Positions 1 through 54,020 of a stretch of DNA of 64,000 nucleotides are shown piece by piece; positions within the stretch are counted from its first letter, which is position 1; each line of letters starts with the position of its first letter. The translations under genes were made by a program, and so were the position numbers. The DNA is from Syntrophales bacterium (lineage in GTDB: Bacteria; Desulfobacterota; Syntrophia; Syntrophales; UBA2210), in assembly GCA_963666365.2 (NCBI GenBank), contig CAXXNF010000002.1:2016001-2080000 (forward strand), read 5' to 3'. The notes beneath the pieces were generated by a model. That model was given only the letters and a program-made list of their open reading frames with translations, had not been told where the DNA came from and did no database searches.

Positions 1-35
1 GGAAAAGAGCAATCCGTCCCTTACAAGATACCAGA

Positions 36-248
36 TCATTGAACTGGCGACACCACCTTTTTCAGGAGAGCTGAAACAGCCACAGCAAATGACTCGGGAT
101 CAACTATTTTGTGGATGCTCGCATAGATAAAAAGCGCTCCCATCAAAAAACTGATAACACGACAATATATTTTTTCCCTGTCACAACTCTGCTGCTTCAT
201 GAACCGCAACATCTTTTCAGAGAGGAAGCGACATCGATCTGACCGCAT
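36..248 (-). pseudogene. Truncated MauE/DoxX-family membrane protein fragment
   Basis: Motif lGalFiyAsihKivDPesFa resembles the first TM segment of MauE/DoxX; ORF ends about 15 codons later. Confidence 0.4.
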
Positions 249-581
249 TGACTACAAAACCACATACAAAGGCAATTAATAGAATCAGACCCGCCTGGAA
301 TATGCACACTCATACCTGTCTGTCAATAGCCTTTTTTTCTCTTTTTGTTCTGTCATATGCTAAAAGATATCTTTCATTTTCTCCCCCGAAAAAAAATGAG
401 GAACTCCCATAATATCCCGGGGGATAACAGTCTTTCGCTACATCACAGACCTTATTGCTCTTACCGATTGCTTTTATAGGAAAACCTTTGCCTATTGCAA
501 GAATTTTGTCAACAGCCTTTCTATGAGTGTTTCCTTGACCCTTTAGAGGCAATTAGGTAAAAGAAACTGAAAGGTAAAAAG

Positions 582-1364
582 GTGAATATGAAAAAAGGTC
601 GAATCAGCGCCATTCTCTTTGAACAGGCCCGCACAGCAGGTGAAAATAGAATTGTAACGGACGTAAGAATCGGTCTCGGCTATATCGGCGTTGCCCTCGA
701 CAACGATCGGCTTGGATTGGCAGCGGTCATACAGGAAGATTTTCAGACGAGCTGTACCGCGCTTTCAAAAGCCGGCACACTTGCCGGATTGAGCGCATCA
801 CAGCTGCTGAAGTTTCTGGTGGAAGGACGCAACCCCCTGGAAAAGGCTTTGGGATTGGCCACGGCAAACGCGATCCTGCGCCCCGGCTCTTGTGCCGATG
901 AAGAGGTGGAAGCGATAGAGGCGATGAAGCTCACCGGGCAGGATACTGTGGCCATGGTGGGTTTTTTCGGGCCGCTTGTCGGCAGGATAAAGGCAACGGG
1001 CGCAACCCTTTCCATTATCGAAAAAAACCCTCGCCGTCCGGGCATTACAGATGCGGCGCGCCAGAAAGAAATCCTTTCAGGCGCCACCGTCGCCATCGTC
1101 ACGGCCACATCAATTTTGAACGACACCATCGAAGACATATTGCACTATCTTGATTCCGCCAGAGAGGTAAGCATACTGGGGCCCTCGACGCCACTCTACC
1201 CGGAGGCGTTTCGAAATACTCCGGTCACTCACCTCGGCGGTTCGGAAAGTCTCGATAACAAAAAAATTATGCAGATTATCTCCGAGGGAGGGGGAACGCC
1301 CGCCATGCGCCCCTATCTTCGGTTTATCAATATTTTTTTCACTAAGGATATGCAGCGCCCATGA
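582..1364 (+). CDS. DUF364 family Rossmann-like protein (putative heavy-metal/cofactor chelation)
   Basis: DVRIGLGY...ALGLATANA, VAMVGFFGP, TATSILNDT, GPSTP motifs. Confidence 0.8.
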   Translation: MNMKKGRISAILFEQARTAGENRIVTDVRIGLGYIGVALDNDRLGLAAVIQEDFQTSCTALSKAGTLAGLSASQLLKFLVEGRNPLEKALGLATANAILRPGSCADEEVEAIEAMKLTGQDTVAMVGFFGPLVGRIKATGATLSIIEKNPRRPGITDAARQKEILSGATVAIVTATSILNDTIEDILHYLDSAREVSILGPSTPLYPEAFRNTPVTHLGGSESLDNKKIMQIISEGGGTPAMRPYLRFINIFFTKDMQRP

Positions 1365-1891
1365 CCCCCATTCTGTCGATTGTCGGAAAATCAAACTCAG
1401 GAAAAACAACCCTCATTGAAAAAATCATTCCCCCTCTGCGTGAAAAGGGCTACCGGGTCGCGACCATCAAGCACAACCGTCACGGTTTCGATATCGATCA
1501 TGAAGGAAAGGACAGCTGGCGTCACAAAAAAGCGGGCGCCTTCACCACAGTGATTGCATCCCCCCACAAGATCGCGGTAATAGAAGATACGGACTGCGAC
1601 TATGGGATAGACGAGCTTGCCGCACGGTACATCCGGTCGGCCGATCTGATTCTGGTGGAAGGATTCAAGGACAACCCCTTCCCGAAGATAGAGGTATCGC
1701 TGGTCCGATCGCAGCACGACCTCCTCTGCACAAAAGAGGACAACCTCATTGCAATCGCCGCAGATGCGCATTATGATAGAGGAGTGCCCTGCTTTGACAT
1801 CAATGACATAGGCGGGTTGGTCGCATTTATTGAAGACTGTTTTTTAAACATGAGGGATAAAAACAGCCGCGGATCGTCTCTTGACTGGTGA
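1361..1891 (+). CDS. mobB: Molybdopterin-guanine dinucleotide biosynthesis protein B
   Basis: GKSNSGKTT P-loop, IKH, GKDSWRHKKAGA, ILVEGFK; ATGA overlap with the upstream gene. Confidence 0.92.
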   Translation: MTPILSIVGKSNSGKTTLIEKIIPPLREKGYRVATIKHNRHGFDIDHEGKDSWRHKKAGAFTTVIASPHKIAVIEDTDCDYGIDELAARYIRSADLILVEGFKDNPFPKIEVSLVRSQHDLLCTKEDNLIAIAADAHYDRGVPCFDINDIGGLVAFIEDCFLNMRDKNSRGSSLDW

Positions 1892-1913
1892 GACAAAAAA
1901 ATATCGCTAAAAT

Positions 1914-2192
1914 ATGAGTGACATTGACTGGCTAAAAATTGTAAAGTGGGTATTTATTGTGTTGGTTGCTGGATTTATCGGCCAGTTCGGGAAAATGCTT
2001 GCCAATCATTTCGCCTCCAAGGCAAAGTTGAAAAAGAAGCGCACACCACAGATGCCCGCGGAAAGTGGACCCAATAGAGTAATTGAAGAATCGGCAAGGG
2101 ATAAAGCCAAGGAAGAAAAGAAACTGTTGAAGGCCCGGACCAAACAACAGAAGAAGGAAGCAAAGGCGCTGCAAAAGCAAAATGAATTGTAA
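1914..2192 (+). CDS. Hypothetical small protein, one TM helix plus a Lys-rich tail
   Basis: Hydrophobic WVFIVLVAGFIG followed by a basic coiled tail; fits between mobB and greA. Confidence 0.65.
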   Translation: MSDIDWLKIVKWVFIVLVAGFIGQFGKMLANHFASKAKLKKKRTPQMPAESGPNRVIEESARDKAKEEKKLLKARTKQQKKEAKALQKQNEL

Positions 2193-2212
2193 AAGAAGTG
2201 GAGGGGTGCATT

Positions 2213-2695
2213 ATGGACAAGGTCCCGATTACGAGACCTGGATTTGAGAAACTGAAAAAGGATCTGGATCATATCAAACGGGTTGACGTACCTGAAAACA
2301 TTCGCGACATCGAAGAAGCTCGTGCACATGGAGACATATCGGAAAACGCCGAGTACGAGGCAGCCAAGGACCGGCAGGCCTTTCTTCAGGCCAAGATTCA
2401 GGAAATAGAAAACAAACTCGCCACATCCATGATAATAGATCCCAATGATCTCACGGATGAACGGGTGGTCTTCGGCGCAACGGTCACCATGGAAGATATG
2501 ATCAAGGAAGAGACTGTCGAGTATCTGCTGGTCGGTCCTTTCGAATCGGACATAGAAAGAAACAGGATCTCCGTCACTTCTCCTATTGGAAAAGCGCTGA
2601 TAGGAAAAGAAGTGGGTGAAGAGGTTTCCGTAAAGACACCAGGAGGGCTCCGCCGGTTCGAAATCGTCGACATCTGCATCAAGCCTCACGATTGA
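2213..2695 (+). CDS. greA: Transcription elongation factor GreA
   Basis: AR.HGDISENAEYEAAK and ISVTSPIGKALIG motifs; SD GGAGGGG upstream of ATG 2213. Confidence 0.95.
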   Translation: MDKVPITRPGFEKLKKDLDHIKRVDVPENIRDIEEARAHGDISENAEYEAAKDRQAFLQAKIQEIENKLATSMIIDPNDLTDERVVFGATVTMEDMIKEETVEYLLVGPFESDIERNRISVTSPIGKALIGKEVGEEVSVKTPGGLRRFEIVDICIKPHD

Positions 2696-2980
2696 GTAAA
2701 TGTCCATACCGTTTAAAGGATGCAGGTTGAGGCCTGCCGCAGCAACGGCGGCAGGCTTCAATGGTTCTCATACTATTCATTATTGCCGGAGAATCGGTTT
2801 TCACTGCAGTTTTGCAGAATACACAGAGTGTGCTCCGGCAGAGAATTAAGTCGCATATCTGCAATTATTTTACTTAAGAGAGTATCATTTTTGCATCTTA
2901 TTATTTGTGTGCAATGACAAGGCGGCGCCATATCGCTTCGATATACATGAAGTTTTTATTTTTATCATACTACGTTTCAG

Positions 2981-2996
2981 TGGCATGATTCTTGGT
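2981..2996 (+). promoter_or_regulatory. Putative sigma54 -24/-12 promoter of the Fe-S/ORP-like operon
   Basis: TGGCATGATTCTTGGT versus consensus TGGCACG-N4-TTGC(A/T); ends 36 nt before ATG 3033. Confidence 0.5.
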
Positions 2997-3032
2997 TATT
3001 GTTGCAAAGATCTTACATGAAAGGAATATACT

Positions 3033-3401
3033 ATGAAAATCGCAATTACCTCAACGGGCGAGGGCATGGAAAGTAAAGTGGACAGGAGTTTTGGAAGGGC
3101 AAAATGGTTTGTCACGATCGACAGGGAAACCAAAGCGATAGAAGCCCACTCGAACGCCCAGAACATACACGCCTCCCACGGCGCGGGCATTCAGGCGGCT
3201 CAGAATGTGGCGAACCTCGGCGTCGAAATCCTGCTGACCGGCAATGTAGGCCCCAATGCGTTTCGCACGTTGCAGGCGGCTTCCATAAAGATCTTCATGT
3301 TTGATAACACCGTAGAGACGGTGGAAGAGGCCCTGGCCCGCTGGGAAGCGGGAGATCTGGCGGAAATAGGCGCACCGACCCGCGAAGGCCACTGGGTATA
3401 A
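3033..3401 (+). CDS. NifB/NifX family (orange-protein-like) Mo-Fe cluster-binding protein
   Basis: MKIAITS..., FGRAKWF, GAGIQAAQ, LLTGNVGPNAFRTL. Confidence 0.88.
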   Translation: MKIAITSTGEGMESKVDRSFGRAKWFVTIDRETKAIEAHSNAQNIHASHGAGIQAAQNVANLGVEILLTGNVGPNAFRTLQAASIKIFMFDNTVETVEEALARWEAGDLAEIGAPTREGHWV

Positions 3402-3456
3402 AGAAAAAACGACCTCCATCCCTGTCATATGGAGGAAACCTGGAAGGTAAAAGATA

Positions 3457-4335
3457 ATGAATATAGCAATTGCAAGCGGCAAGGGCGGTACGGGAAAGAC
3501 GACCATTGCCACCAACCTCTCCCTCGCCCGTGCAGAGAAGGGTGAGCGCGTTACTCTGGCGGATTGTGATGTAGAAGAACCGAACTGCCATATTTTTCTG
3601 AAGCCCCGTATTGTCTACTCGGAAGCGGTCACGGTTCAAAAACCGGAAGTCATTGAAGACCGTTGCACAGGCTGCGGCATCTGTGGAGAAGTCTGTGAAT
3701 ATAACGCAATAGCCGTCATAAAAAAGAAGGTGCTCATATTCCCCGAACTCTGCCACAGTTGCGGGGCCTGCAGTCTTCTTTGCCCGGAAAATGCCATTGC
3801 CGAAACACCGAGGCATGTGGGCATGCTTGAAAAAGGAACCTCTTCCAATCTTTCATTCATTCAAGGACTGCTGAACATCGGCGAGCTGATGTCTCCGGCG
3901 GTCATTCATGCCGTAAGAGAAGCTGCAGGAAGTGATGGTCATGTCGTCGTTGACGCACCACCGGGTACTTCCTGCCCCGTGATCGAGGCCGTCAAGGGTT
4001 CCGATTTTGTCCTGCTCGTTACCGAACCGACTCCTTTCGGTCTTCACGATCTTACACTGGCCGTAGGAATGGTCCGCGAGCTTGATATCCCCTTTGCCGT
4101 GGCGATCAATCGATCCGACATGGGAACGGATGAACTTGCGCGCTACTGCGCCTCCGAAGGAATCGATGTCATACTCGAAATACCTGACGACCGGCGAATC
4201 GCCGAGGCCTACTCGCGGGGAGAGATGATTATTCATGCCCTTCCGGAGTATCGCAACCTTTTCGATGCCTGTTGGAATGAGGTGATGTCACGACAGGGCC
4301 TCCCATTGTCAAAACAGAACGAGGAGGTACTCTAA
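3457..4335 (+). CDS. MinD-superfamily P-loop ATPase with inserted 2x[4Fe-4S] ferredoxin domain
   Basis: SGKGGTGKTT, DCDVEEPN, CTGCGICGEVC and CHSCGACSLLCP, DAPPGTSCP, TEPTPFGLHDL. Confidence 0.92.
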   Translation: MNIAIASGKGGTGKTTIATNLSLARAEKGERVTLADCDVEEPNCHIFLKPRIVYSEAVTVQKPEVIEDRCTGCGICGEVCEYNAIAVIKKKVLIFPELCHSCGACSLLCPENAIAETPRHVGMLEKGTSSNLSFIQGLLNIGELMSPAVIHAVREAAGSDGHVVVDAPPGTSCPVIEAVKGSDFVLLVTEPTPFGLHDLTLAVGMVRELDIPFAVAINRSDMGTDELARYCASEGIDVILEIPDDRRIAEAYSRGEMIIHALPEYRNLFDACWNEVMSRQGLPLSKQNEEVL

Positions 4336-4339
4336 GGCC

Positions 4340-5230
4340 ATGAAAGAAATTGTGATAATCAGCGGAAAAGGGGGAACAGGCAAAACAAGCATCGTGGCGT
4401 CCTTTGCCGCGCTGGCGGGGAAAAAGGCACTTGCCGACTGCGATGTCGATGCCGCGGACCTTCACCTTGTACTGAATCCGGTGATTGAGGGTCGTGAAGA
4501 TTTCAGCGGCGGAAAGAAGGCGCGCATACTTGAAGACGCATGTATCGCCTGCGACAGTTGCATCGAGACATGCCGATTCGACGCGATATCCTACGGCGTC
4601 GGAGGAAAAGTCGATGCGGAATCGATTCCTTCAGTTAATCCGATTTACTGCGAGGGATGCGGGCTTTGCGTGCGCATCTGTCCGGCCGAGGCTATCGCTT
4701 TCGAACCGAGGATAAACGGCGAATGCTACGTATCGACCACGAAATATGGACCCATGGTGCATGCACGGCTCGGCATTGCCGAGGGTAATTCAGGAAAGCT
4801 CGTAAGCCTTGTGAGACAAAAAGCACGGGACATTGCGGAACGAGAGGATCTTGACTACATTCTCGTCGACGGGTCTCCGGGAATCGGCTGTCCCGTCATT
4901 GCATCCATAACGGGGGCCGATGTGATAGTGGCCGTAACGGAACCAACGCTTTCGGGAAAGCACGATCTATTGAGAGTCGCCGATCTGGCGGGTCACTTCA
5001 GAGTTCCCCTGCTTGTGTGCATCAACAAATGGGATCTGAACCCTTCAGTTGCGGAAGAAATTGAAAAGGTAACCGGCGAACGAGGCGCCGCCGTGGCCGG
5101 CCGCGTGCGATACGACAGGGCTATCACCATGGCACAGATAGAAAAAACCACCGTCATCGAATATACCGATCAGGGCGCCTCCCAGGACATTAAGGCACTC
5201 TGGGAAAGAGTGAGGGCCGCTCTCCAATGA
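4340..5230 (+). CDS. MinD-superfamily P-loop ATPase with ferredoxin domain (partner paralogue)
   Basis: SGKGGTGKTS, DCDVDAADL, CIACDSCIETC and CEGCGLCVRICP, DGSPGIGCPVIAS. Confidence 0.92.
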   Translation: MKEIVIISGKGGTGKTSIVASFAALAGKKALADCDVDAADLHLVLNPVIEGREDFSGGKKARILEDACIACDSCIETCRFDAISYGVGGKVDAESIPSVNPIYCEGCGLCVRICPAEAIAFEPRINGECYVSTTKYGPMVHARLGIAEGNSGKLVSLVRQKARDIAEREDLDYILVDGSPGIGCPVIASITGADVIVAVTEPTLSGKHDLLRVADLAGHFRVPLLVCINKWDLNPSVAEEIEKVTGERGAAVAGRVRYDRAITMAQIEKTTVIEYTDQGASQDIKALWERVRAALQ

Positions 5231-5316
5231 ACGGGCAGATCAAAGAAAAGGAGCGAAGGAGAGGCCGACCTATGCGTATCGATGCAGTGAGCGCCTGTAA
5301 ACATTTGGGCCATTGC

Positions 5317-5350
5317 ATATAAAAGTCGATTGAAATATATATAAAAGTCG
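5317..5350. repeat. 12-bp direct repeat ATATAAAAGTCG x2, 22-bp period
   Basis: Exact copies at 5317-5328 and 5339-5350 upstream of mrp. Confidence 0.6.
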
Positions 5351-5391
5351 TATAAGGAAGATAGGTTATATGTCGAAAGGAGACAGGGTAC

Positions 5392-6654
5392 ATGAGCGGT
5401 AACGGAAAAGATCAGGAAGGTCGTAGCGGCGAAACGCCGCCGGCCGGCGACAGCACACTGAAATCCTATACGGAGGGTCAGGCTTTGACGAACCGCATGG
5501 GTGAAATACAAAACAAGATTATGGTCCTCTCCGGCAAGGGGGGCGTGGGCAAAAGTACCGTCGCGGCAAATATCGCGGTCGCCCTCGCTATGGAAGGAAA
5601 AAAAGTGGGCCTTCTTGACACGGACTTTCACGGCCCGAGCATTCCCACACTTCTCAACCTTGAGGGAAAGCGGCCGGGAAGCGACGGCACATCGATCCTG
5701 CCCGTGGAGTACGTCGAGGGCATCAAGGTCATGTCCATCGGCTTTCTGGTGCCCAACCGTGATGACGCCGTCATCTGGAGAGGCCCCATGAAGATGAACG
5801 TGATCAAGCAGTTGCTCTCTGACGTGAACTGGGGAACACTGGATTACCTCGTGGTGGACTTCCCTCCGGGAACCGGCGACGAGCCCCTCTCGGTCGCCCA
5901 GCTCATTCCCCACAGCAACGGCGCGGTGATTGTCACAACCCCTCAGGATCTTTCACTCAACGACGTGCGGAAATGCATCAACTTCTGCCGCCAGGTCAAC
6001 ATTCCCGTCCTGGGCGTCATAGAAAACATGAGCGGATTGGTCTGTCCCAATTGTCACCACCTCATCGATGTCTTCAAATCGGGCGGCGGGGAGAAGATGG
6101 CGAAAGAAATGGGCGTCCCCTTCCTGGGGAAAATACCCATCGACCCGAATGTCGTTGAAGCCTCGGACAGAGGAATGCCCTTCGTATACCATTATTCCAA
6201 GTCGGATGCCGGAAAGGCATTTCGCGAAGCCATCGAACCCCTGCTGAATCTCACGCCCTCCGGAGCGTCGGCAGTTTCTGCAGAAACCCTCAAAAAGGAC
6301 AGTGATATGAAGACAACGCGCATTGCGATTCCTGTGGTGCAGGGACGCCTCAGCCCCCATTTCGGTCATTGCGACACCTTCGCCATTTACGACATCGATC
6401 CCGAAAAAAAAGAGGTCCTCTCTGAAACCACAGAGGAAGCCCCTCCGCACGAACCGGGACTTCTCCCCCGCTGGCTCGGAGAGAAGGGCGTACATGTCAT
6501 TATTGCTGGCGGCATGGGGGCGCGGGCCCAGGAGCTCTTTGCCGAACAGGGGATATCGGTTTCCATCGGCGCACCTTCAGATACCCCCGAAGCGATCGTC
6601 AATGCCTTTATGGAAGGCACCTTGACCCTGGGGGATAACATCTGTGACCACTAA
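5392..6654 (+). CDS. mrp: Mrp/NBP35 Fe-S cluster carrier ATPase fused to a C-terminal NifB/NifX domain (MrpORP-like)
   Basis: SGKGGVGKST, VIWRGP, DFPPGTGDE, ENMS..CPNC; C-terminal IAIP...HFGHC...PHEPG.LP...GGMG.RA...CDH. Confidence 0.92.
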   Translation: MSGNGKDQEGRSGETPPAGDSTLKSYTEGQALTNRMGEIQNKIMVLSGKGGVGKSTVAANIAVALAMEGKKVGLLDTDFHGPSIPTLLNLEGKRPGSDGTSILPVEYVEGIKVMSIGFLVPNRDDAVIWRGPMKMNVIKQLLSDVNWGTLDYLVVDFPPGTGDEPLSVAQLIPHSNGAVIVTTPQDLSLNDVRKCINFCRQVNIPVLGVIENMSGLVCPNCHHLIDVFKSGGGEKMAKEMGVPFLGKIPIDPNVVEASDRGMPFVYHYSKSDAGKAFREAIEPLLNLTPSGASAVSAETLKKDSDMKTTRIAIPVVQGRLSPHFGHCDTFAIYDIDPEKKEVLSETTEEAPPHEPGLLPRWLGEKGVHVIIAGGMGARAQELFAEQGISVSIGAPSDTPEAIVNAFMEGTLTLGDNICDH

Positions 6655-7096
6655 TGAACGGCAGAAAGATGACAGGGGAATAATTGAGGCGCTCCTGGGA
6701 ATGGCCTATGAAAAGGCCGCCGAGGTGTATTCCGAAGCCCTCGTGGATGCGGGTATGAACCCACAGCACTACGGCACGCTGCCGAACCCCGACGGATATG
6801 CGGCAGTCACCGGGACCTGAGGAGACACCGTCCAGATCTTTCTTCGGGTAAGAAAGGATATCATCGAGGAAGCAAAGTTTTCCACCGACGGGTGTATGTT
6901 TACCACCGCCGCGGCGGAAACGGCAGCCAGGCTGTGCCTGCACAAATCAATCCGGGACTGCCTTTTTATTAACGAAAGCGCAATTCTTGCGCAACTGCCC
7001 AGGATGCCCGAGGATCACAGGCATTGCGCGCTTTTGGCCGCAATGACATTCCAGAAGGCGCTGAAGGAGTGCATCGGAGGCAAGGGGACACAATAA
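6644..7096 (+). CDS. IscU/NifU-N-type Fe-S scaffold protein with in-frame TGA (probable selenocysteine) at 6818-6820
   Basis: Translation from GTG 6644: ...YSEALVDAGMNPQHYGTLPNPDGYAAVTGT-TGA-GDTVQIFLRVRKDIIEEAKFSTDGC...PEDHRHCALLA; the TGA occupies the Cys of the conserved GxCGD motif. Confidence 0.8.
6835..6862 (+). promoter_or_regulatory. Putative bacterial SECIS hairpin
   Basis: Stem CTTTCTT(6838-6844)/AAGAAAG(6850-6856), loop CGGGT starting after a 24-nt gap from the TGA, with G at loop position 2. Confidence 0.65.
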
Positions 7097-7111
7097 ATCA
7101 GGAGGTATGCG

Positions 7112-8071
7112 ATGGCCGGAACCGCAGCGATCACCGAGGTTGACAAGGTAGAAATCATTACGCTTCAAGACAACTATATCGAGATTACCGCGCAGGACAA
7201 CAGTGCGGTTATTTCGCGGGCCATGGCCGTCCGCAACGGAGAAATCAACAACTCCATCCAGGCGGAGCACGGGTTTTCTGCCATAGTGAGAACCACAAGG
7301 GGGGGCGCCGGACGGACCATGCTCTTCGACTTCGGCTTTTCACCTGAAGGGGCCGCCTTTAATGCGCGGGCCCTCAACATCCCCCTGCAGGAGGTTGAAG
7401 TCATGGCCTTGTCGCATGGTCACAGCGATCACACCGGCAGCATGGGGGAACTTACCCGAATGATCGGTCGAGACGGCATTCCGCTTGTCCTCCATCCGAC
7501 CGCCTTTGCCTATCCCCGCTATCTCAAGCCGATTCCGGATCTCAAAATATATTTTCCCCGTCTGATTCGCGAGGATTTGACTGCCCAGGGCATCGAGGTC
7601 ATCGAAACGAAAGATCCCTATCCCCTTCTTGACACCCAGGCGCTCTTTCTCGGTGAAATAGAACGAATCACTGATTTCGAAAAGGGGTTCCCCATCGCCT
7701 ATCGGGAAGAAGCAGGAAAGGAAATCTGGGATCCCATCGAAGATGATACCGCTGTTGTCATGAACCTGAAGGGAAAGGGGCTTATTGTGCTTTCCGGCTG
7801 TGCCCATTCGGGCATAGTCAACACCGTTGCCTATGCGAAAAAAGTGACCGGTATCGATCAAGTCCATGCAATAATGGGCGGATTTCACCTTTCCGGACCT
7901 TTGTTCGAACCGATTATCGACAGAACCACGGAAGAGATAAAAAAATTTCGGCCTACCTATGTGGTGCCCTGTCATTGTACGGGAAGAAATGCTATTATGC
8001 GCATGGAACGGGAAATGCCGGACGAGTTTATTTTAAATATGAGCGGCACGACGCTGACCTTTACCGCTTGA
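7112..8071 (+). CDS. MBL-fold metallo-hydrolase (COG1237-type)
   Basis: AEHGFS, LFDFG, SHGHSDHTG, SGCAHSGIVN, GGFHL, PCHCTG. Confidence 0.88.
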   Translation: MAGTAAITEVDKVEIITLQDNYIEITAQDNSAVISRAMAVRNGEINNSIQAEHGFSAIVRTTRGGAGRTMLFDFGFSPEGAAFNARALNIPLQEVEVMALSHGHSDHTGSMGELTRMIGRDGIPLVLHPTAFAYPRYLKPIPDLKIYFPRLIREDLTAQGIEVIETKDPYPLLDTQALFLGEIERITDFEKGFPIAYREEAGKEIWDPIEDDTAVVMNLKGKGLIVLSGCAHSGIVNTVAYAKKVTGIDQVHAIMGGFHLSGPLFEPIIDRTTEEIKKFRPTYVVPCHCTGRNAIMRMEREMPDEFILNMSGTTLTFTA

Positions 8072-8095
8072 GGGTTCATACCCTTTGGACCCGGC

Positions 8096-8132
8096 AACGC
8101 TCCCTTCCGCAACGCGGAGAGGGAGCGTTTTT
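8096..8132 (+). terminator. Rho-independent terminator
   Basis: AACGCTCCCT...AGGGAGCGTT stem plus T-tract. Confidence 0.75.
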
Positions 8133-8162
8133 ATGTAAGCCCGCTCTCTGAAGGAAAACGCA

Positions 8163-10169
8163 ATGGATGTGAAAAACGAAACACTGTGCAGTTTATTTCA
8201 CCGGCAGGCGCTTCGCTACGGTGATACATATGTTTTTCTTAAGGCAAAATTCGACGACGAGGGGAAACCCGCTTCCTCATACCACTCTCTCACATGGAAA
8301 GACGTCCGCGATCAGGTGTTGGAGTTTGCCGGCGGACTCTTGTCTTTCGGAGCAAAAAGGGGGGATAGGGTTGCCCTCTTTTCGGAAAGCCGCCCACGAT
8401 GGATCATCGCCGACCAGGCCATACAGGCGGCTGGGTGTATAGGCGTGCCCCTCTATCCCACGCTGACCAGGGAGGAACTGACGTACATGCTCCGCGACAG
8501 CGGCGCCGGCATCATTATCGTCTCAACCGCCGACAAAGCATCCATGGCCCTTGGCGTAAGAACCTCGGAAAAGCTGGATTTAATAATTATTGTCATGGAA
8601 CCCTGGGAAGCGGAAAAACCGGAAGACCTCTATACTTTCTCTGAAGTAAGGGAGATGGGACAATTGGGAATAGTCACCGACGAAGTGGAGCAGCGGATAG
8701 AAGCGGTCAGACCGGAGGATAGCGCCTCCATCATCTATACCTCGGGAACAACCGGGTATCCAAAGGGAGTGGTGCTGACGCAGTCGAACTGGGTGGCCGC
8801 CATGCACCAGGCATCTCATTCCACATTGATTCGCAGGCAGAAAACAAGGGAACTCCATCTCACCTATCTTGTCCATCTTCCGCTCTGTCACGCCTACGGA
8901 CGAACCACGGACTATCATGTGGGGGGGCTTCACCTGGGAGGGATTCTGGTCTTTGCCGAAAGTTACGAAAAACTGGTCAAAAATATCGCCGAGGTCCACC
9001 CCAATGTGATCATCAGCATCCCCAGGTTTTTCGAAAAAACCTATGATATTGTAAAATCGACCCTGGCAAGGCAGCAGCCTTTCACCCGCAGACTTTTCAA
9101 ATGGGCAATGGAGACGGGCACAGATTTTACCAATGCCATGGCCGGAGGCCCGAAGATGTCGCTTTCGACTTCACTCAAGTTCGGGCTGGCTCACCTGCTG
9201 GTGTTCAACAGGATCAGGGAAAACGCGGGATTTGATCGCCTCGTTATCGGCATATCGGGGGGTGGAAGACTTTCCGGCGATGTGTGCAGTTTTATCAGAG
9301 CGCTGGGCATTCAGCTCAATGAAGGATACGGACTTACGGAAACCTGTGCGCTCCTCAATTTCAACGAACCCGAACTTTACGATATTAAAGAAAAGAAGCT
9401 CACTGCATGGGAACACAGGATGATCGATTGGATCGTCGATCTTCTGGTGGCCAGGCAGGCGCAGGGGAATAGTCCCTACGCCAACCCCTTCAGCGCGCTG
9501 AAAATGCTTATTGCCTATTACAGTATCGGCTACCGGCTGAGGGTAAAGCCGGGAACGGTGGGAAGACCGGTTGCTCTTACGGAGGAAATAATCGCCCCCG
9601 ACGGTGAGATCCTGGTCAAGGGACCCCAGGTATTTCAGGGGTACTGGAACCTGCCGAAGGAAACCGAGGCGGCCTTCAACGAAGAAGGCTGGTTCATGAC
9701 AGGCGATATCGGCGCATTCGACTCAGAGGGGTTTCTGACCATAAAGGACAGAAAAAAAGAACTCCTTGTCACCTCCGGAGGAAAAAATATCGCCCCGCAA
9801 CCTATCGAGCACGCTCTTGCAACCCGCCCCTACATCGATCAGGCCGTCTGTACCGGCGATGGCAGAAAATATCTGACGGCGCTTATTGTGCCGGATTTTA
9901 AAAAACTTCGGGCCTATGCAAAATCCAGGAGTCTTAAAGCGGATTCGGAACAGCAGCTTCTTCAAATCGATGAAATTAAAACACTGATCAGAGGCGATGT
10001 GGCCGAGGTGAACCGCCGCCTCCCCCGCTACGAACAGATCAAATACTGCACCATCCTGACAAAGCCCTTCCTCATCGAAACGGGAGAACTGACACCGAGC
10101 ATGAAGATCAAACGCCGGATCATCGAAGAGAAGTACAGGGAAGAAATCGAGGCCATGTACGAAGAGTGA
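8163..10169 (+). CDS. Long-chain-fatty-acid--CoA ligase (FadD15/ACSL-like)
   Basis: YTSGTTGYPKG, GYGLTET, TGDIG, DRKKELLVTSGGKNIAPQ, ELTPSMKIKR. Confidence 0.9.
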   Translation: MDVKNETLCSLFHRQALRYGDTYVFLKAKFDDEGKPASSYHSLTWKDVRDQVLEFAGGLLSFGAKRGDRVALFSESRPRWIIADQAIQAAGCIGVPLYPTLTREELTYMLRDSGAGIIIVSTADKASMALGVRTSEKLDLIIIVMEPWEAEKPEDLYTFSEVREMGQLGIVTDEVEQRIEAVRPEDSASIIYTSGTTGYPKGVVLTQSNWVAAMHQASHSTLIRRQKTRELHLTYLVHLPLCHAYGRTTDYHVGGLHLGGILVFAESYEKLVKNIAEVHPNVIISIPRFFEKTYDIVKSTLARQQPFTRRLFKWAMETGTDFTNAMAGGPKMSLSTSLKFGLAHLLVFNRIRENAGFDRLVIGISGGGRLSGDVCSFIRALGIQLNEGYGLTETCALLNFNEPELYDIKEKKLTAWEHRMIDWIVDLLVARQAQGNSPYANPFSALKMLIAYYSIGYRLRVKPGTVGRPVALTEEIIAPDGEILVKGPQVFQGYWNLPKETEAAFNEEGWFMTGDIGAFDSEGFLTIKDRKKELLVTSGGKNIAPQPIEHALATRPYIDQAVCTGDGRKYLTALIVPDFKKLRAYAKSRSLKADSEQQLLQIDEIKTLIRGDVAEVNRRLPRYEQIKYCTILTKPFLIETGELTPSMKIKRRIIEEKYREEIEAMYEE

Positions 10170-10230
10170 AAAAAGGGTCCAGTATGCGCACAACGCGGTC
10201 GTACGACTGCACATAGCACACAAGAATGAT

Positions 10231-10267
10231 AAAAAAAGGTCCTTTCACTCTCGGAAAGGACCTTTTT
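10231..10267. terminator. Bidirectional terminator between convergent genes
   Basis: AAAAAAAGGTCCTTTC-loop-GAAAGGACCTTTTT. Confidence 0.85.
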
Positions 10268-10285
10268 AATTAACCTGTTTATCGG

Positions 10286-11953
10286 TTACTCCGGATCCTT
10301 GAACACGGCCCCCGTGCTGGCAGAAGTGACCATCTTGGCATAGCGTCCCAGGTATCCCGTTTTGATGAGCGGTTCCTTGGGCGTAAATGCTTTTTTGCGA
10401 CGGGCCAGTTCCTCCGCATCGACCTTCAGATCGATCGTCTTCCCCGGAATGTCGATGGCGATGATATCGCCTTCTTCGATGAGGCCGATGGGTCCGCCTT
10501 CGGCCGCTTCCGGTGATATGTGGCCGATGGCGGCGCCGCGGGTCCCGCCGCTGAATCGCCCGTCAGTCAAAAGGGCCACCGACGTGTCCAGTCCCATGCC
10601 GACAATGGCCGACGTGGGCGACAGCATCTCGCGCATGCCCGGTCCTCCCTTGGGACCCTCGTAGCGGATCACCACCACATCGCCCGGCTTTATCGTTCCT
10701 CCAAGAATCGCCTCAATGGCGTCATCCTCGGAATCGAAGACCCGGGCGCGCCCCTCGTTTTTCATCATGTCGGGCGACACGGCGGACTGCTTCACCACCC
10801 CTCCGTCAGGGGCGAGGTTTCCGCGCAGTATGGCGATTCCCCCTTCCGTTCCGTAGGGATCGTCAGCGGATCTGATGACGGTGCGGTTTTTGACGCGGGC
10901 CTTTTTCAGATTTTCTCCCACCGTTTTCCCCGAGACCGTAAGCGCATCGAGGTTAACGACGCCCTTCGCGCTTATTTCCTTCATTACCGCCTGAATGCCC
11001 CCGGCGCCGTCAAGGTCTTCCAGGTGGTGGGGCCCGGCAGGACTGAGGTAACAGATGTTGGGCGTTTTTCTGCTGATATCGTTGAAAAGGTCGAGATCGA
11101 GGTCGATGCCCGCCTCGTGGGCGACGGCCGGAATATGAAGCACCGTATTGGTGGAACAGCCCAGGGCCATATCGACGGCGATGGCGTTTTTGAAGGCGTC
11201 GAGCGTGGCGATGTCACGCGGCTTGATATCCTTTTTTACGAGATTCATGACGGCCATCCCCGCCTCTTTTGCAAGCCGTCTGCGGGCGGCGGTAACGGCG
11301 GGAATGGTCCCGTTCCCCGGGAGTCCCAGTCCGAGGGCCTCGGTGACGCAGTTCATGGAGTTCGCCGTAAACATGCCGGAACAGGAACCGCACCCCGGAC
11401 AGGCGCAATCCTCCAGTTCGCCAAGCCCCTTCCGGGTCAACGTCCCCGCCTTGACCCTTCCTACGCCCTCGAACACATTGATCAGGTCGACGGGATCACC
11501 GTCATGGACTCCCGCCATCATGGGCCCTCCGCTTATCACCACGGCGGGAATATTGAGACGCAGCGCCGCCATAAGCATGCCCGGCACTATCTTGTCGCAG
11601 TTCGTCACAAGCACAAGACCGTCGAAGGGATGGGCCGTGGCCATGATTTCGATGGAATCGGCGATCAGCTCCCTGCTGGCCAGGGAATATTTCATGCCGG
11701 CGTGGCCCATGGCGATGCCGTCACAGACGCCGATCGTGGGAAATGTCACCGGCGTTCCGCCTGCCATTCTGATTCCCGCCTTCACATCCTCCGTAATAGT
11801 GTTGAGATGTACATGGCCGGGAATAATTTCGTTGGCCGAATTTACTACCCCGATTATCGGCCGGGACAGCTCTTCGTCGGTATAGCCCATGGCCTTGAAG
11901 AGCGATCGGTGCGGCGCTCGCTCAAGACCCTTTTTCATAAGATCACTTCTCAT
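10286..11953 (-). CDS. ilvD: Dihydroxy-acid dehydratase
   Basis: [48 protein letters not shown]; start MRSDL at 11953. Confidence 0.96.
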
Positions 11954-12081
11954 TTCATCGTCCTTTTTTGTGTCGTTGAGGGGTAAAGCGATGAATATGG
12001 TTTCATGGAGAGGGCAACGGAACCACTGCAGGGAATACTCGGTCTTTCCACCCTCTCCACACTCGGATCTGGCAATGCCGC

Positions 12082-13140
12082 TTACTTCTTGCCCCGCCGC
12101 TCCGGACGAAGCTCTCGTAGGACGGTTCCGGCCTGCCACATCTCCATAGTGCGCATCGCGCTCAGCTCTTCCTCAAGCCGTTCGCGGTAATCGGGGGCGC
12201 TGTTTACCCGCAGGACAATTTCCGTCTCTTTTCCCGATTTCACACTTTCATAGAGTTCATCGAATACCGGATCAACGGCCTCGCGGAACCGGCTTTTCCA
12301 GTCGAGGGCGCCGCGCTGCGCCGTGGTGGAACAGTTTGCGTACATCCAGTCCATACCGTTTTCTCCCACAAGACGGATCAGGCTCTGGGTCAATTCTTCC
12401 ACCGTCTCATTGAAAGCCTCGCTGGGGCTGTGGCCGTGTTTCCTGAGACAGTTATACTGGGCTTCCATTACGCCGGCCAGGCATCCCATAAGGACGCCGC
12501 GCTCGCCGGTCAGGTCGCTGAACACTTCGTTCTCGAAGGTGGTGGGGAAAAGGTATCCCGAACCGACGGCAATGCCGATCGCCTTCGTCCTGTCCATGGC
12601 ACGGCCGGTGGCATCCTGAAACACGGCGATGCTGGAGTTGATGCCGCTTCCATCAAGGAAATTTCTTCGAACCGTCAAACCCGATCCCTTGGGCGCCACC
12701 ATGATGACATCGATGTCGGCGGGAGGGACAATCCCCGTCTGTTCCTTGTAGACAATAGAAAACCCGTGTGAAAAATAGAGGGCCTTCCCTGCGGTCATTA
12801 AATCCTTGATTTTCGGCCATACCGCCGCCTGGCCCGCATCGGAAAGCAGCAGCATGACAATGGTGCCTCGCTTCGCCGCCTCTTCCAGGGAGAAGAGACT
12901 CTCGCCGGGCACAAACCCGTCATTGATCGCCTTGTTCCAGTAGAACTCTTCGCTCTCCCGCTGTCCCACAATGACCTTGAATCCGTTGTCCTGCATGTTG
13001 AGCGCCTGTCCCGGTCCCTGCACACCGTAGCCGAGCACGGCAATGACCTCGTCTTTCAGCACTTCACGAGCCATTTCCAGAGTAAATTCGTCCGCCGTGA
13101 TCACCTCTTCGACCACATCTCCGATTTTTATTTCCGCCAT
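12082..13140 (-). CDS. ilvC: Ketol-acid reductoisomerase (Ilv5/Bacteroidota-like type)
   Basis: [50 protein letters not shown]. Confidence 0.95.
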
Positions 13141-13169
13141 CTTTCATCTCCTCACTTTTTATTATTTAT

Positions 13170-13643
13170 TTATAATACAACCATTCCCGATCTGCTCATG
13201 TCCTCAATGCCAAGTGTCTCGAAATATGCCAGGGCCCGATCGATATCCTTCTTGACCCCCGTCAACTCGAACAGAAAACAATCAGGACCCTCCGCCACGA
13301 CCCTGCTCCCGAATTCTTCAATGGCTTTGATGACCTCTCCCCGGTTGTCCCGTGTGACGCTCACACGAATCAGCACCATCTCCCGCTGTATCGACGATCT
13401 CGCCTTTACGTGGGTCACCTCGATGACATCCACCAGTTTCTGCATCTGTTTTTCTATCTTCACGACGGTGTTCGCGTCGCCCTTTGTCACCATGGTAATC
13501 TTGGTCACCTCGGGATTCATGGTCACGTTGGCGCTTATATTTTCTATATTGAATCCCCGGCCGCTCAGAAGTCCTGAAATCCGGGCAAGCACGTCGGGTT
13601 TGTTATTCACCAGAAGTGAAATCGTATGATCCTTTACTTCCAT
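13170..13643 (-). CDS. ilvN: Acetohydroxyacid synthase regulatory subunit (copy 1, Gly-to-Asp in the ACT Val site)
   Basis: ACT domain LVNNKPDVLARISGLLSGRGFNIE, KLVDVIEV, RSG. Confidence 0.92.
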   Translation of the reverse strand: MEVKDHTISLLVNNKPDVLARISGLLSGRGFNIENISANVTMNPEVTKITMVTKGDANTVVKIEKQMQKLVDVIEVTHVKARSSIQREMVLIRVSVTRDNRGEVIKAIEEFGSRVVAEGPDCFLFELTGVKKDIDRALAYFETLGIEDMSRSGMVVL

Positions 13644-13758
13644 AGGTTTGCAATCCTTTCATCAATCAGAAAATCACAGGGCCCGATAGAGACAGGCCGA
13701 CCTTCCGGTACAGGTTCTGCAAGCGACGGACATCGCATACTATCCGCACGCGGGCTTT

Positions 13759-15465
13759 CTAAAGCCCTGTATCCCGCACCAGTTTCATTTCCGTCAAGGC
13801 CGCCCCGGGACCTACCATGGGATAGACGCCCTCCTCGGCTTCGACTATAAATTCCATTACCACCGGTCCCGGCGTCTCCAGACCCTTTCGAAGCGTCGCT
13901 TCCACTTCATCCGGTTGTGTCGCCCTCAAGCCCACGATGCCGTATGCCTCGGCGACCTTCACAAAATCGGGCCTCTGACTGCTGCCGATATCAGTGTGGG
14001 AATAGCGTTTTTCATAAAAAAGTTCCTGCCACTGGCGCACCATTCCCAGATATCCGTTGTTCAGGATCACGATCTTGACGGGAAGGTTATAATTTGCCGC
14101 TGTGGCGAGTTCCTGAATGTTCATCTGAATGCTTCCGTCGCCGGCGATGTCCACCACCAATTTATCGGGAAAGGCCACCTGAGCGCCAATCGCCGCCGGA
14201 AAGCCATAGCCCATGGTCCCCAATCCTCCAGAGGTAAGAAAGGTATTTGGCTCATTGAACCGAAAGAACTGCGCCGTCCACATCTGGTTCTGTCCCACCT
14301 CGGTGGCGATAATGGCGTTCCCCTTTGTGAGTTCGTAGAGCGTTTCGATGACCTTCTGCGGTTTGATGGTAGTGCTCTTACAGTAGCTCATAGGACCCTC
14401 GAGCCGCCAGCGCTCGATTTGTGCGAGCCACTCCTTTCGTCCTTCCCGAAGCGCGGAAAGACCGTTCTTATCCAGTATGGTGTTCAGTTGCACAAGGGCC
14501 GACTTGCAGTCGCTTACGATGGGCACATGGACGAGCACATTTTTATTAATCGATGCGGCATCAATATCGATCTGCACGATGGTCGCATTCGACGCGAAGG
14601 AAGAGAGCCTCCCGGTGACGCGGTCGGAAAATCGCACGCCCAGGGTGAGCAGCAGATCGCAATTGCTTATGGCCATATTCGCATAGTAGGTGCCGTGCAT
14701 CCCAAGCATCCCAAGCCAGAGGGGATCGGTGCCGGGAAACGATCCCAGGCCCATAAGTGTTGAAGCGACAGGCATGTTGAGCTTTCGCACAAACTCGGCA
14801 AGCTCAGCACTCGACCGGCTGTGAATGATACCGCCCCCTACCAGCACCACCGGCTTTTTCGCCCCCTTGATCAATTCAAGTGTTTCTTTGAGCTGTTTCG
14901 GATCGGGAAGATAGACCGGTTCCGCCATAGTCGATCGGGAAAGCCCTCCTTCGCGATATTCGGCCTTCGCCTGAATGACATCCTTGGGAAGATCGACGAG
15001 GACCGGCCCGGGACGGCCGGAGCGGGCAATGTAAAAAGCCTCCCTTATGGTTTTTGCCAGCTCGTCCACGCGTCGCACCAGCATATTATGCTTGGTGCAG
15101 GGCCGAGTGATGCCGGTGATATCGGCCTCCTGAAAGGCATCGGTCCCGATAAAAGGAGTCGGCACCTGTCCCGTCAGAATAACCATGGGGATAGAGTCCA
15201 TATAGGCCGTAGCAATGCCGGTTACCGTATTTGTGGCGCCGGGACCTGAAGTTACGAGACAGACGCCTACCTTTCCCGACGATCTGGCATACCCGTCGGC
15301 GGCATGAGCGGCCCCCTGCTCATGGCGCACCAGTATATGGTGTATTGAGGACCTGTACAGTTCGTCGTATATATCGAGAACCGAACCACCGGGATAGCCG
15401 AAAATCGTGTCGACACCCTCTTCAAGCAATGACCGGATTAATATTTGTGCACCTGTGAATTCCAC
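13759..15465 (-). CDS. ilvB: Acetohydroxyacid synthase catalytic subunit (copy 1)
   Basis: FGYPGG, RHEQGA, SGPGATN, GDGSIQMN, LGMVRQWQ; GTG start with AGGAGG SD. Confidence 0.95.
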   Translation of the reverse strand: MEFTGAQILIRSLLEEGVDTIFGYPGGSVLDIYDELYRSSIHHILVRHEQGAAHAADGYARSSGKVGVCLVTSGPGATNTVTGIATAYMDSIPMVILTGQVPTPFIGTDAFQEADITGITRPCTKHNMLVRRVDELAKTIREAFYIARSGRPGPVLVDLPKDVIQAKAEYREGGLSRSTMAEPVYLPDPKQLKETLELIKGAKKPVVLVGGGIIHSRSSAELAEFVRKLNMPVASTLMGLGSFPGTDPLWLGMLGMHGTYYANMAISNCDLLLTLGVRFSDRVTGRLSSFASNATIVQIDIDAASINKNVLVHVPIVSDCKSALVQLNTILDKNGLSALREGRKEWLAQIERWRLEGPMSYCKSTTIKPQKVIETLYELTKGNAIIATEVGQNQMWTAQFFRFNEPNTFLTSGGLGTMGYGFPAAIGAQVAFPDKLVVDIAGDGSIQMNIQELATAANYNLPVKIVILNNGYLGMVRQWQELFYEKRYSHTDIGSSQRPDFVKVAEAYGIVGLRATQPDEVEATLRKGLETPGPVVMEFIVEAEEGVYPMVGPGAALTEMKLVRDTGL

Positions 15466-15484
15466 ACAACACCTCCTCATTATT

Positions 15485-15520
15485 AAAAAAAAACCGCTAC
15501 CGGGGAGCCGGTAACGGTTC
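15485..15520 (-). terminator. Attenuator terminator upstream of ilvB copy 1
   Basis: mRNA GAACCGUUACCGG-CUCC-CCGGUAGCGG-U9. Confidence 0.85.
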
Positions 15521-15543
15521 TTAGTTCTCCTATGGTAAAAAGA

Positions 15544-15624
15544 TCAGACCATTAGCCAGCCCCTCGTATGGGAGGAGATAATTATAATTACGCCGCTAAT
15601 TATAAAATTTCTCTCAGTAGTCAT
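15544..15624 (-). CDS. Ile-rich attenuation leader peptide MTTERNFIISGVIIIISSHTRGWLMV
   Basis: 26-aa uORF with 6 Ile and 2 Val codons just before a terminator; its 3' part GGGGCUGGCUAAUGGU can pair with the terminator 5' arm (antiterminator). Confidence 0.8.
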   Translation of the reverse strand: MTTERNFIISGVIIIISSHTRGWLMV

Positions 15625-15718
15625 GCCGACAAATCTGATCTTTCCGATTCGTATTGAAATAACTGCGCTTAGCTATCAGAAATGTCGTGTACTGTCAAGC
15701 GATTTTATCGGCTCCTTT

Positions 15719-16201
15719 TTATTTATTTTCCAGCGCAATGGCGCCTGTCCGGCAGATATCCTTTACGCCCAGCGGTTTCAAATAATTGAGCACCGTTTCC
15801 ACTTCTCCCTTGTACCCCACCGCCTGGATTATCAGATAGTCGTCCTTCATCGACACAATTGAACACCCGAACAGGGAAATCGCCTGCGTGATTTCGGCCC
15901 GATGGGCCTTGTCGAAGGGAAGGCCTATAAGCATCATCTCCCGTTTGACCGAGTGCGTATCTTCCAGTTCCGTCACCTCGATCACGTCAACCAGTCGATT
16001 CAGGGCCTTTCTGACCTTCTCCATGAACTGCGAATCTCCCTTGCTCACCGAGGTAATGCGCGACACTTTCGGTGAAATGGTTTCGGCCACACAGAGACTC
16101 TCAATGTTGTAACCAAGACGGCCGAACACACCGGAGACCCGCGCCAGAACGCCCGGTCTGTTGTTGACCAGCATTGATATCACATGTTCTCTAATTTCCA
16201 T
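15719..16201 (-). CDS. ilvN: Acetohydroxyacid synthase regulatory subunit (copy 2, canonical PGVL)
   Basis: LVNNRPGVLARVSGVFGRLGYNIESL, RLVDVIEV, RTG. Confidence 0.92.
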   Translation of the reverse strand: MEIREHVISMLVNNRPGVLARVSGVFGRLGYNIESLCVAETISPKVSRITSVSKGDSQFMEKVRKALNRLVDVIEVTELEDTHSVKREMMLIGLPFDKAHRAEITQAISLFGCSIVSMKDDYLIIQAVGYKGEVETVLNYLKPLGVKDICRTGAIALENK

Positions 16202-51845: not shown

Positions 51846-52001
51846 CAAGAAGCCTTTCAATAATATTATTTTTTGGCTTTTATATCTTGAAGTCCTTTGG
51901 CGCACAAGTAAATTGACCATTCGCTTGCGGTCTCTTCATTTTCCTTTACAAGAATGCCAAATATTGTTAGCGTGCCGCAACGACCCTCAAAAAAGGCTGC
52001 A

Positions 52002-53162: not shown

Positions 53163-53174
53163 GGTACCCTTTGC

Positions 53175-54020
53175 ATGTCGCCTGTCGAACGCACATCGAT
53201 CATATGCCCCAATTGCCGTAAACTGATCAGCTCCTATGAAGAGCGCTGCCCCTATTGCGGCATGAAAAATCCGGGAAGCCGATGGCGGATCGATATCCTT
53301 GCCTCCCTCTTTCAAAGATACGACCTGATTTCCGTGATCATCGGAACCAATGCGGCCTTCTATATTCTTTCGCTCGTGCTCAACACCTCATCGGTGGGCA
53401 TGTCGGCCAATCCCATGGCCCTCCTGTCTCCCTCCAACAACAGTCTCCTGCTGCTGGGCGCGACGGGCGCCATTCCCATCGATCACTTTCACTGGTGGTG
53501 GACGTTGATTTCGGCATCCTATCTCCACGGCGGCGTGCTTCACATTTTTTTCAATATGATAGCGCTCTACCAGATCGGACCTTTTGTCCGCAACGAGTAC
53601 GGTCCCCATCGTTTCTTTATCATCTACAGCATCGCCGGGATTGCAGGATTTTTCATATCCTATCTGGCGGGGGTCTCTTTTACGATCGGCGCCTCAGCGA
53701 GCCTTTGCGGCCTGATCGGCGCAACGCTTTTCTATGGAAAAAGCCGGGGGGGCAGCTTCGGTACCGCAATCTATCGGCAGGTCCTGGGGTGGGTTGTGGT
53801 CCTCATTGTGTTCGGATTCCTTGTGCCGGGCATCAACAACTGGGCCCACGGCGGAGGGATTGTCACCGGGATCGCCGGAGGATTTCTTCTGGGATATAAT
53901 GATACACGATTAGAAACCGCGGCGCACCGCCTGCTGGCGAATGCCTTCCTGTTCCTGACCGTCCTCGTGCTCATCTGGGCGGTTCTTCAGGCCCTTTACC
54001 ACACCCTTTTTTCCTTTTAG
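53175..54020 (+). CDS. Rhomboid intramembrane serine protease with N-terminal Zn ribbon
   Basis: CPNC...CPYC; H.G.LHIFFNM, GAS, AHGGG. Confidence 0.9.
   Translation: MSPVERTSIICPNCRKLISSYEERCPYCGMKNPGSRWRIDILASLFQRYDLISVIIGTNAAFYILSLVLNTSSVGMSANPMALLSPSNNSLLLLGATGAIPIDHFHWWWTLISASYLHGGVLHIFFNMIALYQIGPFVRNEYGPHRFFIIYSIAGIAGFFISYLAGVSFTIGASASLCGLIGATLFYGKSRGGSFGTAIYRQVLGWVVVLIVFGFLVPGINNWAHGGGIVTGIAGGFLLGYNDTRLETAAHRLLANAFLFLTVLVLIWAVLQALYHTLFSF

Follow-up and report, generated by a model that had tools for sequence, protein, structure and literature searches.

Does the in-frame TGA of a NifU-like gene in a Syntrophales bacterium end the protein, betray a broken gene, or encode selenocysteine (Sec)? 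The gene lies on the plus strand at positions 6644-7096 of the window, by which we mean the whole 64,000-nucleotide (nt) stretch analyzed (GenBank assembly GCA_963666365.2, contig CAXXNF010000002.1, positions 2,016,001 to 2,080,000), and directly follows mrpORP. An earlier note on this DNA had proposed a hidden selenoprotein here, an iron-sulfur (Fe-S) cluster scaffold of the IscU/NifU type with Sec at its first cluster ligand. Here, we report that this gene (the scaffold gene) is highly likely to be a genuine selenoprotein gene in which UGA codon 59 is read as Sec, and that both the TGA at the Cys column and the in-register hairpin behind it across relatives are judged to be far beyond chance.

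Reading frame and coding constraint

The scaffold gene comprises 150 codons and a TAA, with one in-frame TGA that is read through to give a product of the NifU_N/IscU fold (Pfam, AlphaFold2, and Foldseek). Its GTG start (6644-6646) stands 8 nt behind a Shine-Dalgarno-like GGGGGA (6630-6635; whole signal, 6630-6646, + strand) and overlaps the 3' end of the upstream 420-amino-acid (aa) gene (stop TAA, 6652-6654). This GTG is the sole start codon in the frame ahead of residue M20, and because residues 13 to 20 (IIEALLGM) are kept in the aligned orthologues, the true start should lie upstream of them. The TGA (6818-6820, + strand), the proposed codon of U59, is the single stop in a frame otherwise free of stops and frameshifts; it falls at residue 59 in the context G-T-TGA-G-D, at the first Cys of a GxCGD motif. 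The codons of C84 (6893-6895, + strand; motif DGC), the second cluster ligand, and of H127-C128 (7022-7027, + strand; motif HC), the third Cys ligand with its His, are intact and invariant in an alignment of 12 Sec and 19 Cys forms (alignment A1). The overlapping start, the GGGGGA ahead of it, the 150-codon frame with its lone TGA, and the ligand motifs all agree with what the earlier note had described.

Gene calling under translation table 11 turns this locus into a 58-aa open reading frame (ORF; 6644-6820) and a 66-aa ORF (6896-7096), and public protein sets hold the TGA forms only as fragments of 58 to 78 aa, some of them named NifU-like, which bears out the expectation that standard pipelines would miss the gene. 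The closest full-length relatives in a collection of 5.8 billion proteins are Cys forms with at most 60% identity. This output is also what a true stop would give, with a 58-aa N-terminal peptide, a separate 66-aa protein from the ATG at 6896, or both as the products. Coding constraint argues otherwise: codons 60 to 84, which fall between the two ORFs, are conserved and include D61 and D-G-C84, both invariant; M85, the ATG of the 66-aa ORF, is unconserved, orthologues having L, A, I, or V in its place; and both halves are required for the IscU fold and the full complement of ligands. For the 82 codons that follow the TGA, the ratio of nonsynonymous to synonymous substitution rates (dN/dS), measured from codon 60, was 0.07 to 0.31 in the 7 of 12 Sec-form pairs with computable dS (synonymous sites were saturated in the remaining 5), as strict as in the upstream part of the gene or stricter, so that the comparison proposed earlier found purifying selection on each side of the TGA. 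We rate a true stop at codon 59 as very improbable. Because downstream dN/dS is low, codons 60 to 84 are conserved, and M85 is not, a split gene or a pseudogene is excluded for practical purposes.

The TGA column across relatives

Orthologues were sought in 339 species genomes of the Syntrophales, 147 of which hold one at an E value of at most 1e-25; 150 matches were listed, and 22 more were weaker. Among the matches listed, 14 carry exactly one TGA (13 genomes, three families), and a fifteenth (genome G003) possibly does, its frame being broken by masked bases. Each of the 14 has its TGA within G-T/S-U-G-D, in the alignment column of the GxCGD Cys. From metagenomes, a pattern scan recovered 14 contigs with the TGA form, each with a frame that continues past the TGA to full protein length; several are duplicates of genome loci, and the pooled set comprises 19 distinct TGA forms. 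Each of the 23 Cys forms read has a Cys codon (TGC or TGT) at this column, and the invariant residues of alignment A1 include U/C59, G60, D61, G83, C84, H127, and C128. In a phylum-wide sample of 401 genomes, 12 held an orthologue at an E value of at most 1e-28, with TGA only in the window's genome. No genome searched outside the Syntrophales had the Sec form.

A lone in-frame stop typically marks a short gene as a pseudogene or as the product of a sequencing or assembly error, and the earlier note had conceded that a TGA unique to this assembly, with no hairpin conserved in relatives, would undo its case. The same TGA recurs in the 13 species genomes and 14 metagenome contigs, with Cys in the other homologues read, and the frame has neither further stops nor frameshifts and is under purifying selection on both sides. 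Because the TGA-form relatives are 49 to 73% identical to the window protein, shared contaminating sequence is excluded as the source of the recurrence. Decay or error strikes us as an extremely improbable origin of this codon.

The hairpin 3' of the UGA

A hairpin at 6837-6857 (+ strand) has eight pairs (6837-6844 with 6850-6857) and the loop CGGGU (6845-6849). Its inner 7-bp stem (6838-6856) is the CTTTCTT-CGGGT-AAGAAAG that had been put forward as a candidate Sec insertion sequence (SECIS), to which one outer U.G pair is added here. The loop begins 24 nt after the TGA, as claimed, or 27 nt from the U of UGA, inside the 21 to 28 nt seen for loop starts in the window genome's other UGA genes. 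The program bSECISearch looks for an apical loop about 16 to 37 nt from the UGA with a G among the first loop bases, and a hand check of the scaffold hairpin found such a distance and such a G.

Sec and Cys forms differ at this hairpin. At least six of the seven inner pairs are present in register in 14/14 genome Sec forms and 14/14 metagenome forms, compared with 5/23 Cys forms; all eight pairs are present in 7/14 and 9/14, respectively, compared with a single Cys form of the 23 (L039). Pairing extends to 96.1% of the 152 cells given by the 19 distinct Sec rows, a level reached by 0 of 500 shuffles, with slid registers at 56 to 66%; the same register is paired in 125 of 184 cells among the Cys forms. 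Two pairs covary among the 19 rows, namely, 27-45 (AU in 7, CG in 4, GC in 3, GU in 2, and unpaired in the other 3) and 30-42 (UA in 14, CG in 2, and unpaired in the other 3). The loop consensus of the distinct TGA forms is NGKGN, with G at positions 2 and 4 in every row, although the residue coded at position 4 varies (V, E, G, or A); the codon covering that position begins with G in 12/23 Cys forms. For the peptide IFLRVRNG, Sec forms have UUUCUU-CGNGU-AAGAAA, whereas the Cys paralogue L059 has UUUCUU-CGGGU-GCGAAA. This paralogue lies away from mrp in a genome (G316) that also has a Sec form next to mrp (L053), and because the two share a genome, the difference between their hairpins is unexplained by genome codon bias. 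Given the peptide and the codon usage of the window's genome, the probability of seven of seven in-register pairs is 0.008 to 0.14 per sequence.

Several results weigh against a SECIS at this place and Sec at codon 59. The 69-nt stretch 6812-6880 folds no better than shuffles of itself (z = 0.86; 163/200 as good or better), 1,493 of 5,000 synonymous recodings yield a hairpin of at least 7 bp with its loop 16 to 37 nt from the UGA, and 2,964 of 5,000 fold as stably as the real sequence. The hairpin is weak and A/U-rich (about −5 kcal/mol), whereas fdhA, selD, and the HesB-like gene in this genome have G/C-rich hairpins, with −11.7 to −19.6 kcal/mol for the stretch that was folded. Part of its complementarity is dictated by the conserved F-L-R-x-R/K peptide, which sets pyrimidine-rich against purine-rich codons; 5/23 Cys forms reach six of seven pairs, and a C.A mismatch stands midstem in 5/14 genome Sec forms and 2 metagenome rows. 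An Rfam scan of 6600-7100 returned three chance-level hits and no SECIS family. The hairpin statistics come from related sequences, and kin are not independent; the well-supported branches of the tree allow a single Sec origin. An alternative helix (6815-6849), in which the UGA and the next codons (UGAGGNGA) pair with UUYCUUCG, the sequence of the hairpin's 5' arm and loop, is 88.5% paired over the 19 rows. Sec insertion at residue 59 is itself deduced from comparison among sequences.

The alternative helix of UGAGGNGA with UUYCUUCG was not preferred, as 7 of its 11 pairs never vary and its variable pair 12-30 is broken in 10/19 rows; paired almost only via invariant columns, it may or may not form. 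Because single-sequence folding and recoding gave no signal, the SECIS case rests on comparison. Of the earlier claim for a SECIS-like hairpin, its conservation in TGA-bearing relatives stood, and the hairpin in the window sequence by itself carries no weight.

Selenocysteine machinery and the origin of the two forms

The machinery that the earlier note had asked after is complete in the window's genome, where selA (608 bits), selB (361.5 bits), selD (382.8 bits), and the tRNA-Sec gene selC (76.3 bits) all score over the cut-offs of curated models. Six further genes of selenoprotein families in this genome carry a TGA, namely, selD, four fdhA-like genes, and one HesB-like gene. The HesB-like frame (G000:C2:368292-368531, − strand) has one in-frame TGA, in GG-U-GGP, and scores 39.8 bits, below the TIGR01911 cut-off of 66.35; it is possibly a HesB-like selenoprotein that has diverged. 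Elsewhere in the genome TGA works as a normal stop codon, terminating 865 of the 2,111 frames that are open for at least 300 codons. The gene selA is found in 309 of the 339 Syntrophales genomes, including 13/13 with a TGA form, so Cys forms also occur in Sec users.

A UGA may also be read through without Sec, by a near-cognate Trp, Cys, or Arg tRNA, with the hairpin slowing the ribosome or merely incidental. Such decoding would account for the downstream conservation, which shows only that a full-length product is made, and would suit a hairpin that is weak and insignificant in the single sequence. It fits poorly with homologues whose residue at the exact column is Cys, chemically the twin of Sec, and with a metal-ligand position that would not tolerate Trp or Arg. 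A hairpin with the position of a SECIS and a G-bearing loop that is mostly missing from Cys forms, the complete Sec machinery, and selA in every TGA-form genome argue against it as well. We hold read-through of this kind to be distinctly unlikely and prefer Sec at codon 59.

When the tree was computed without the Sec/Cys column, one 31-row clade took in every Sec form. Also within this clade are three Cys rows on long branches and a well-supported Cys clade from the window's own family; beyond it stand seven rows, all of them Cys. The Sec group is not recovered as one resolved clade, and the tree needs four changes. One gain of Sec, then reversion to Cys, is allowed by these branches. Basal members of the window-family Cys clade (L025, L027, L028, and L039) keep six to eight in-register pairs, and their hairpins may be decaying SECIS elements left after a Sec-to-Cys change.

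Two observations stand beside this history. L039 (genome G029) retains the full set of hairpin pairs in the codons behind the TGT of its GICGD motif. Genome G314 (family f6) has two Sec copies (L054 and L055) on short contigs that group with sequences of family f20, which suggests transfer or bin contamination.

Protein family and assembly site

The read-through product matches Pfam NifU_N (PF01592) at 69.4 bits (cut-off, 22) over residues 29 to 142, spanning U59. Its AlphaFold2 model has a predicted local distance difference test (pLDDT) score of 91.9, and Foldseek aligned it to the IscU structures 7c8m and 4eb5 with template modeling (TM) scores of 0.84 to 0.86 and root mean square deviations (rmsd) of 1.1 to 1.5 Å (7c8m_A, E = 5.1e-12 and TM 0.86; 4eb5_C, rmsd 1.1 Å). 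A profile of the family matches archaeal-type IscU chains at E = 2e-37. The assembly-site set is kept and is invariant in 31 sequences: U59 (for Cys), D61, C84, H127, and C128.

No NCBIfam model claims the protein, which misses the equivalog cut-offs of IscU (TIGR01999; 47.6 versus 192.4) and of clostridial NifU (TIGR03419; 72.4 versus 187.9). IscU proper presumably carries an LPPVK-type chaperone motif, in whose place the scaffold has MPEDH. Also telling against a scaffold, Pfam detected no cysteine desulfurase (Aminotran_5) gene in window positions 1-16000; a three-domain NifU and a NifS are encoded on another contig (G000:C1, about 1068-1070 kb), together with probable cysE and cysK. The proposal of an IscU/NifU-type scaffold thus held for the NifU_N domain and the IscU fold and failed for equivalence to IscU proper, given scores below the cut-offs and no desulfurase next to it. 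The protein is, by its sequence, a member of a distinct MrpORP-linked NifU_N subfamily.

Residue spacing places the assembly site on that of human ISCU2 (numbering from the accessible part of PMC11021402): C69-D71 equals U59-D61, H137-C138 stands at +68/+69, and the middle Cys is at +26 in ISCU2 and +25 here, so that by spacing U59, D61, C84, H127, and C128 are ISCU2 Cys69, Asp71, Cys95, His137, and Cys138. According to the same part of that source, Cys69 ligates Fe(II) in free ISCU2, is replaced by desulfurase Cys381 in the complex, and is dispensable for persulfide transfer, and the equivalent SufU Cys41 is the sulfur acceptor (PMC11021402). Because ISCU2 Cys69 is swapped for desulfurase Cys381, Sec would occupy a mobile, exchangeable position of the site.

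Gene neighborhood and proposed role

Directly upstream of the scaffold gene, mrpORP (5392-6654, + strand) joins an Mrp/NBP35 P-loop domain (Pfam ParA) to a Nitro_FeMo-Co domain and scores 541.8 bits against NCBIfam NF041136 (MrpORP; cut-off, 450). Ahead of it on the same strand, Pfam identified a Nitro_FeMo-Co protein (3033-3401) and two CbiA/MinD-like ATPases with a 4Fe-4S ferredoxin insert (3457-4335 and 4340-5230). A metallo-beta-lactamase-fold gene (7112-8071, + strand; Pfam Lactamase_B, 1.9e-6) begins 15 nt downstream of the scaffold gene and is syntenic in many orthologous loci (tblastn). By their domains, the genes around mrpORP have the layout of an ORP cluster. A DUF4213/DUF364 "heavy-metal chelation" gene and mobB (582-1891) lie just upstream of this cluster, and their proximity hints at a link with molybdenum/tungsten (Mo/W) cofactor handling.

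Synteny from tblastn shows mrpORP directly preceding the scaffold gene in 13/14 Sec loci, the fourteenth beginning at a contig end, and an Mrp homologue in the flank of 20/25 Cys loci. In genome G038, of the same order, a Cys-form NifU_N domain is fused to an Mrp/NBP35 ATPase in one 431-aa frame (L049, 1483-2775), which we take as a Rosetta-stone link between the two neighbors in the window. From this fusion, direct contact between the scaffold and MrpORP is predicted. Desulfovibrio MrpORP binds one [4Fe-4S] and one [3Fe-4S] cluster and hands Fe-S clusters to aconitase and Orp3/Orp4 in vitro, according to the accessible part of its description (PMC6345978).

We propose that UGA codon 59 would be recoded by SelB and Sec-tRNA(Sec), guided by the A/U-rich hairpin with its NGKGN loop, and that Sec would replace the first assembly-site Cys (Cys69 of ISCU2, Cys41 of SufU). 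Selenium, with a lower pKa and as a better nucleophile and leaving group, could then serve as an Fe ligand that exchanges readily, or could accept sulfur. The scaffold would be a second, specialized one beside the housekeeping three-domain NifU/NifS and, presumably translated together with MrpORP, would most likely build or receive Fe-S clusters for a putative handover to MrpORP and on to the ORP complex. That selenium ligates a nascent cluster, as the earlier note had it, is suggested by analogy with these sites. Going further, we offer as a tentative possibility that selenium at the exchangeable ligand forms Fe-Se bonds or Se-S intermediates, through which clusters are assembled, or released to MrpORP, more rapidly. 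Biogenesis of Fe-S (or ORP heterometal) clusters in syntrophic anaerobes would then have a branch that depends on selenium, gained once and reverted to Cys in some lineages still bearing a decaying SECIS.

Sec might instead be inserted for another role, in sulfur or selenium handling or in a Mo/W heterometal cluster, as part of a SufU-like relay. The sulfur-accepting Cys41 of SufU, given for this position in the accessible part of PMC11021402, would agree with such a role, as would the missed IscU and NifU equivalog cut-offs and the presence of MobB, the DUF364/DUF4213 gene, and three Nitro_FeMo-Co domains within 6 kb. Set against these are the retention of all five ISCU-type assembly-site residues, best structure and sequence matches to cluster-binding archaeal-type IscU and not to SufU, and a neighbor, MrpORP, that is a demonstrated Fe-S carrier in the accessible text of PMC6345978. 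We consider such a role unlikely and favor a Fe-S cluster scaffold.

Other TGA-joined frames in the window

The window contains 56 pairs of frames joined by a TGA. Of these, 15 were run against Pfam, with no domain found across the TGA in any, and were rejected as read-through genes, being neighboring genes or antisense frames. At 51954-54017 (+ strand), a TraB/PrgY-family gene and a rhomboid gene share one frame with one TGA between them and no spanning domain; they look like two ordinary adjoining genes.

Novelty and comparison with known systems

The earlier note did not recall IscU among the classical bacterial selenoprotein families, and Table 1 of a 2026 review, in its accessible part, likewise has no NifU_N/IscU entry among 119 prokaryotic selenoprotein families and subfamilies; the same table has a HesB-like entry and several Fe-S-binding ones. 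Full-text literature searches, whose coverage did not extend to the BSepDB family list, turned up no paper that describes IscU or NifU as a selenoprotein. The scaffold very probably represents an unlisted selenoprotein family.

Fe-S cluster scaffolds rank with the most thoroughly studied metallochaperones, and we know of none that uses selenium. Natural Sec and Cys orthologues, and even paralogues in one genome, make the role of the mobile first scaffold ligand directly testable, and the finding ties Fe-S/ORP maturation to selenium supply in the syntrophic bacteria that inhabit digesters and sediments. Annotation pipelines cut the gene into pieces of 58 to 78 aa, which a family model allowing U at this column would repair.

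Among genes that use SelB and a SECIS, fdhA/fdhF and selD resemble the scaffold gene in having a UGA at a Cys/Sec column and a hairpin with a G-bearing loop just 3' of it; the scaffold stem has 7 to 8 bp, and its counterparts in fdhA, selD, and the HesB-like gene of the window's genome are two to four times more stable when folded. The HesB-like selenoprotein (related to A-type carriers; TIGR01911) is, like the scaffold, tied to Fe-S cluster handling but differs in fold, in step (a carrier and not a U-type scaffold), and in motif (UxGP versus GTUGD). The Desulfovibrio ORP cluster (PMC6345978) shares MrpORP, Orp3/Orp4-like ATPases, and a Nitro_FeMo-Co protein with the window, and its description, in the accessible part, has no IscU-type gene beside mrpORP and no mention of selenium; an IscU-type partner of mrpORP is a feature of the Syntrophales and a few other Desulfobacterota. 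Archaeal-type IscU (7c8m and 4eb5) and ISCU2 have the same fold (TM 0.84 to 0.88) and five-residue assembly site as the scaffold, which differs from them in its predicted Sec for the first Cys, in an extra 28-residue N-terminal helix, and in a gene paired with mrpORP instead of a desulfurase.

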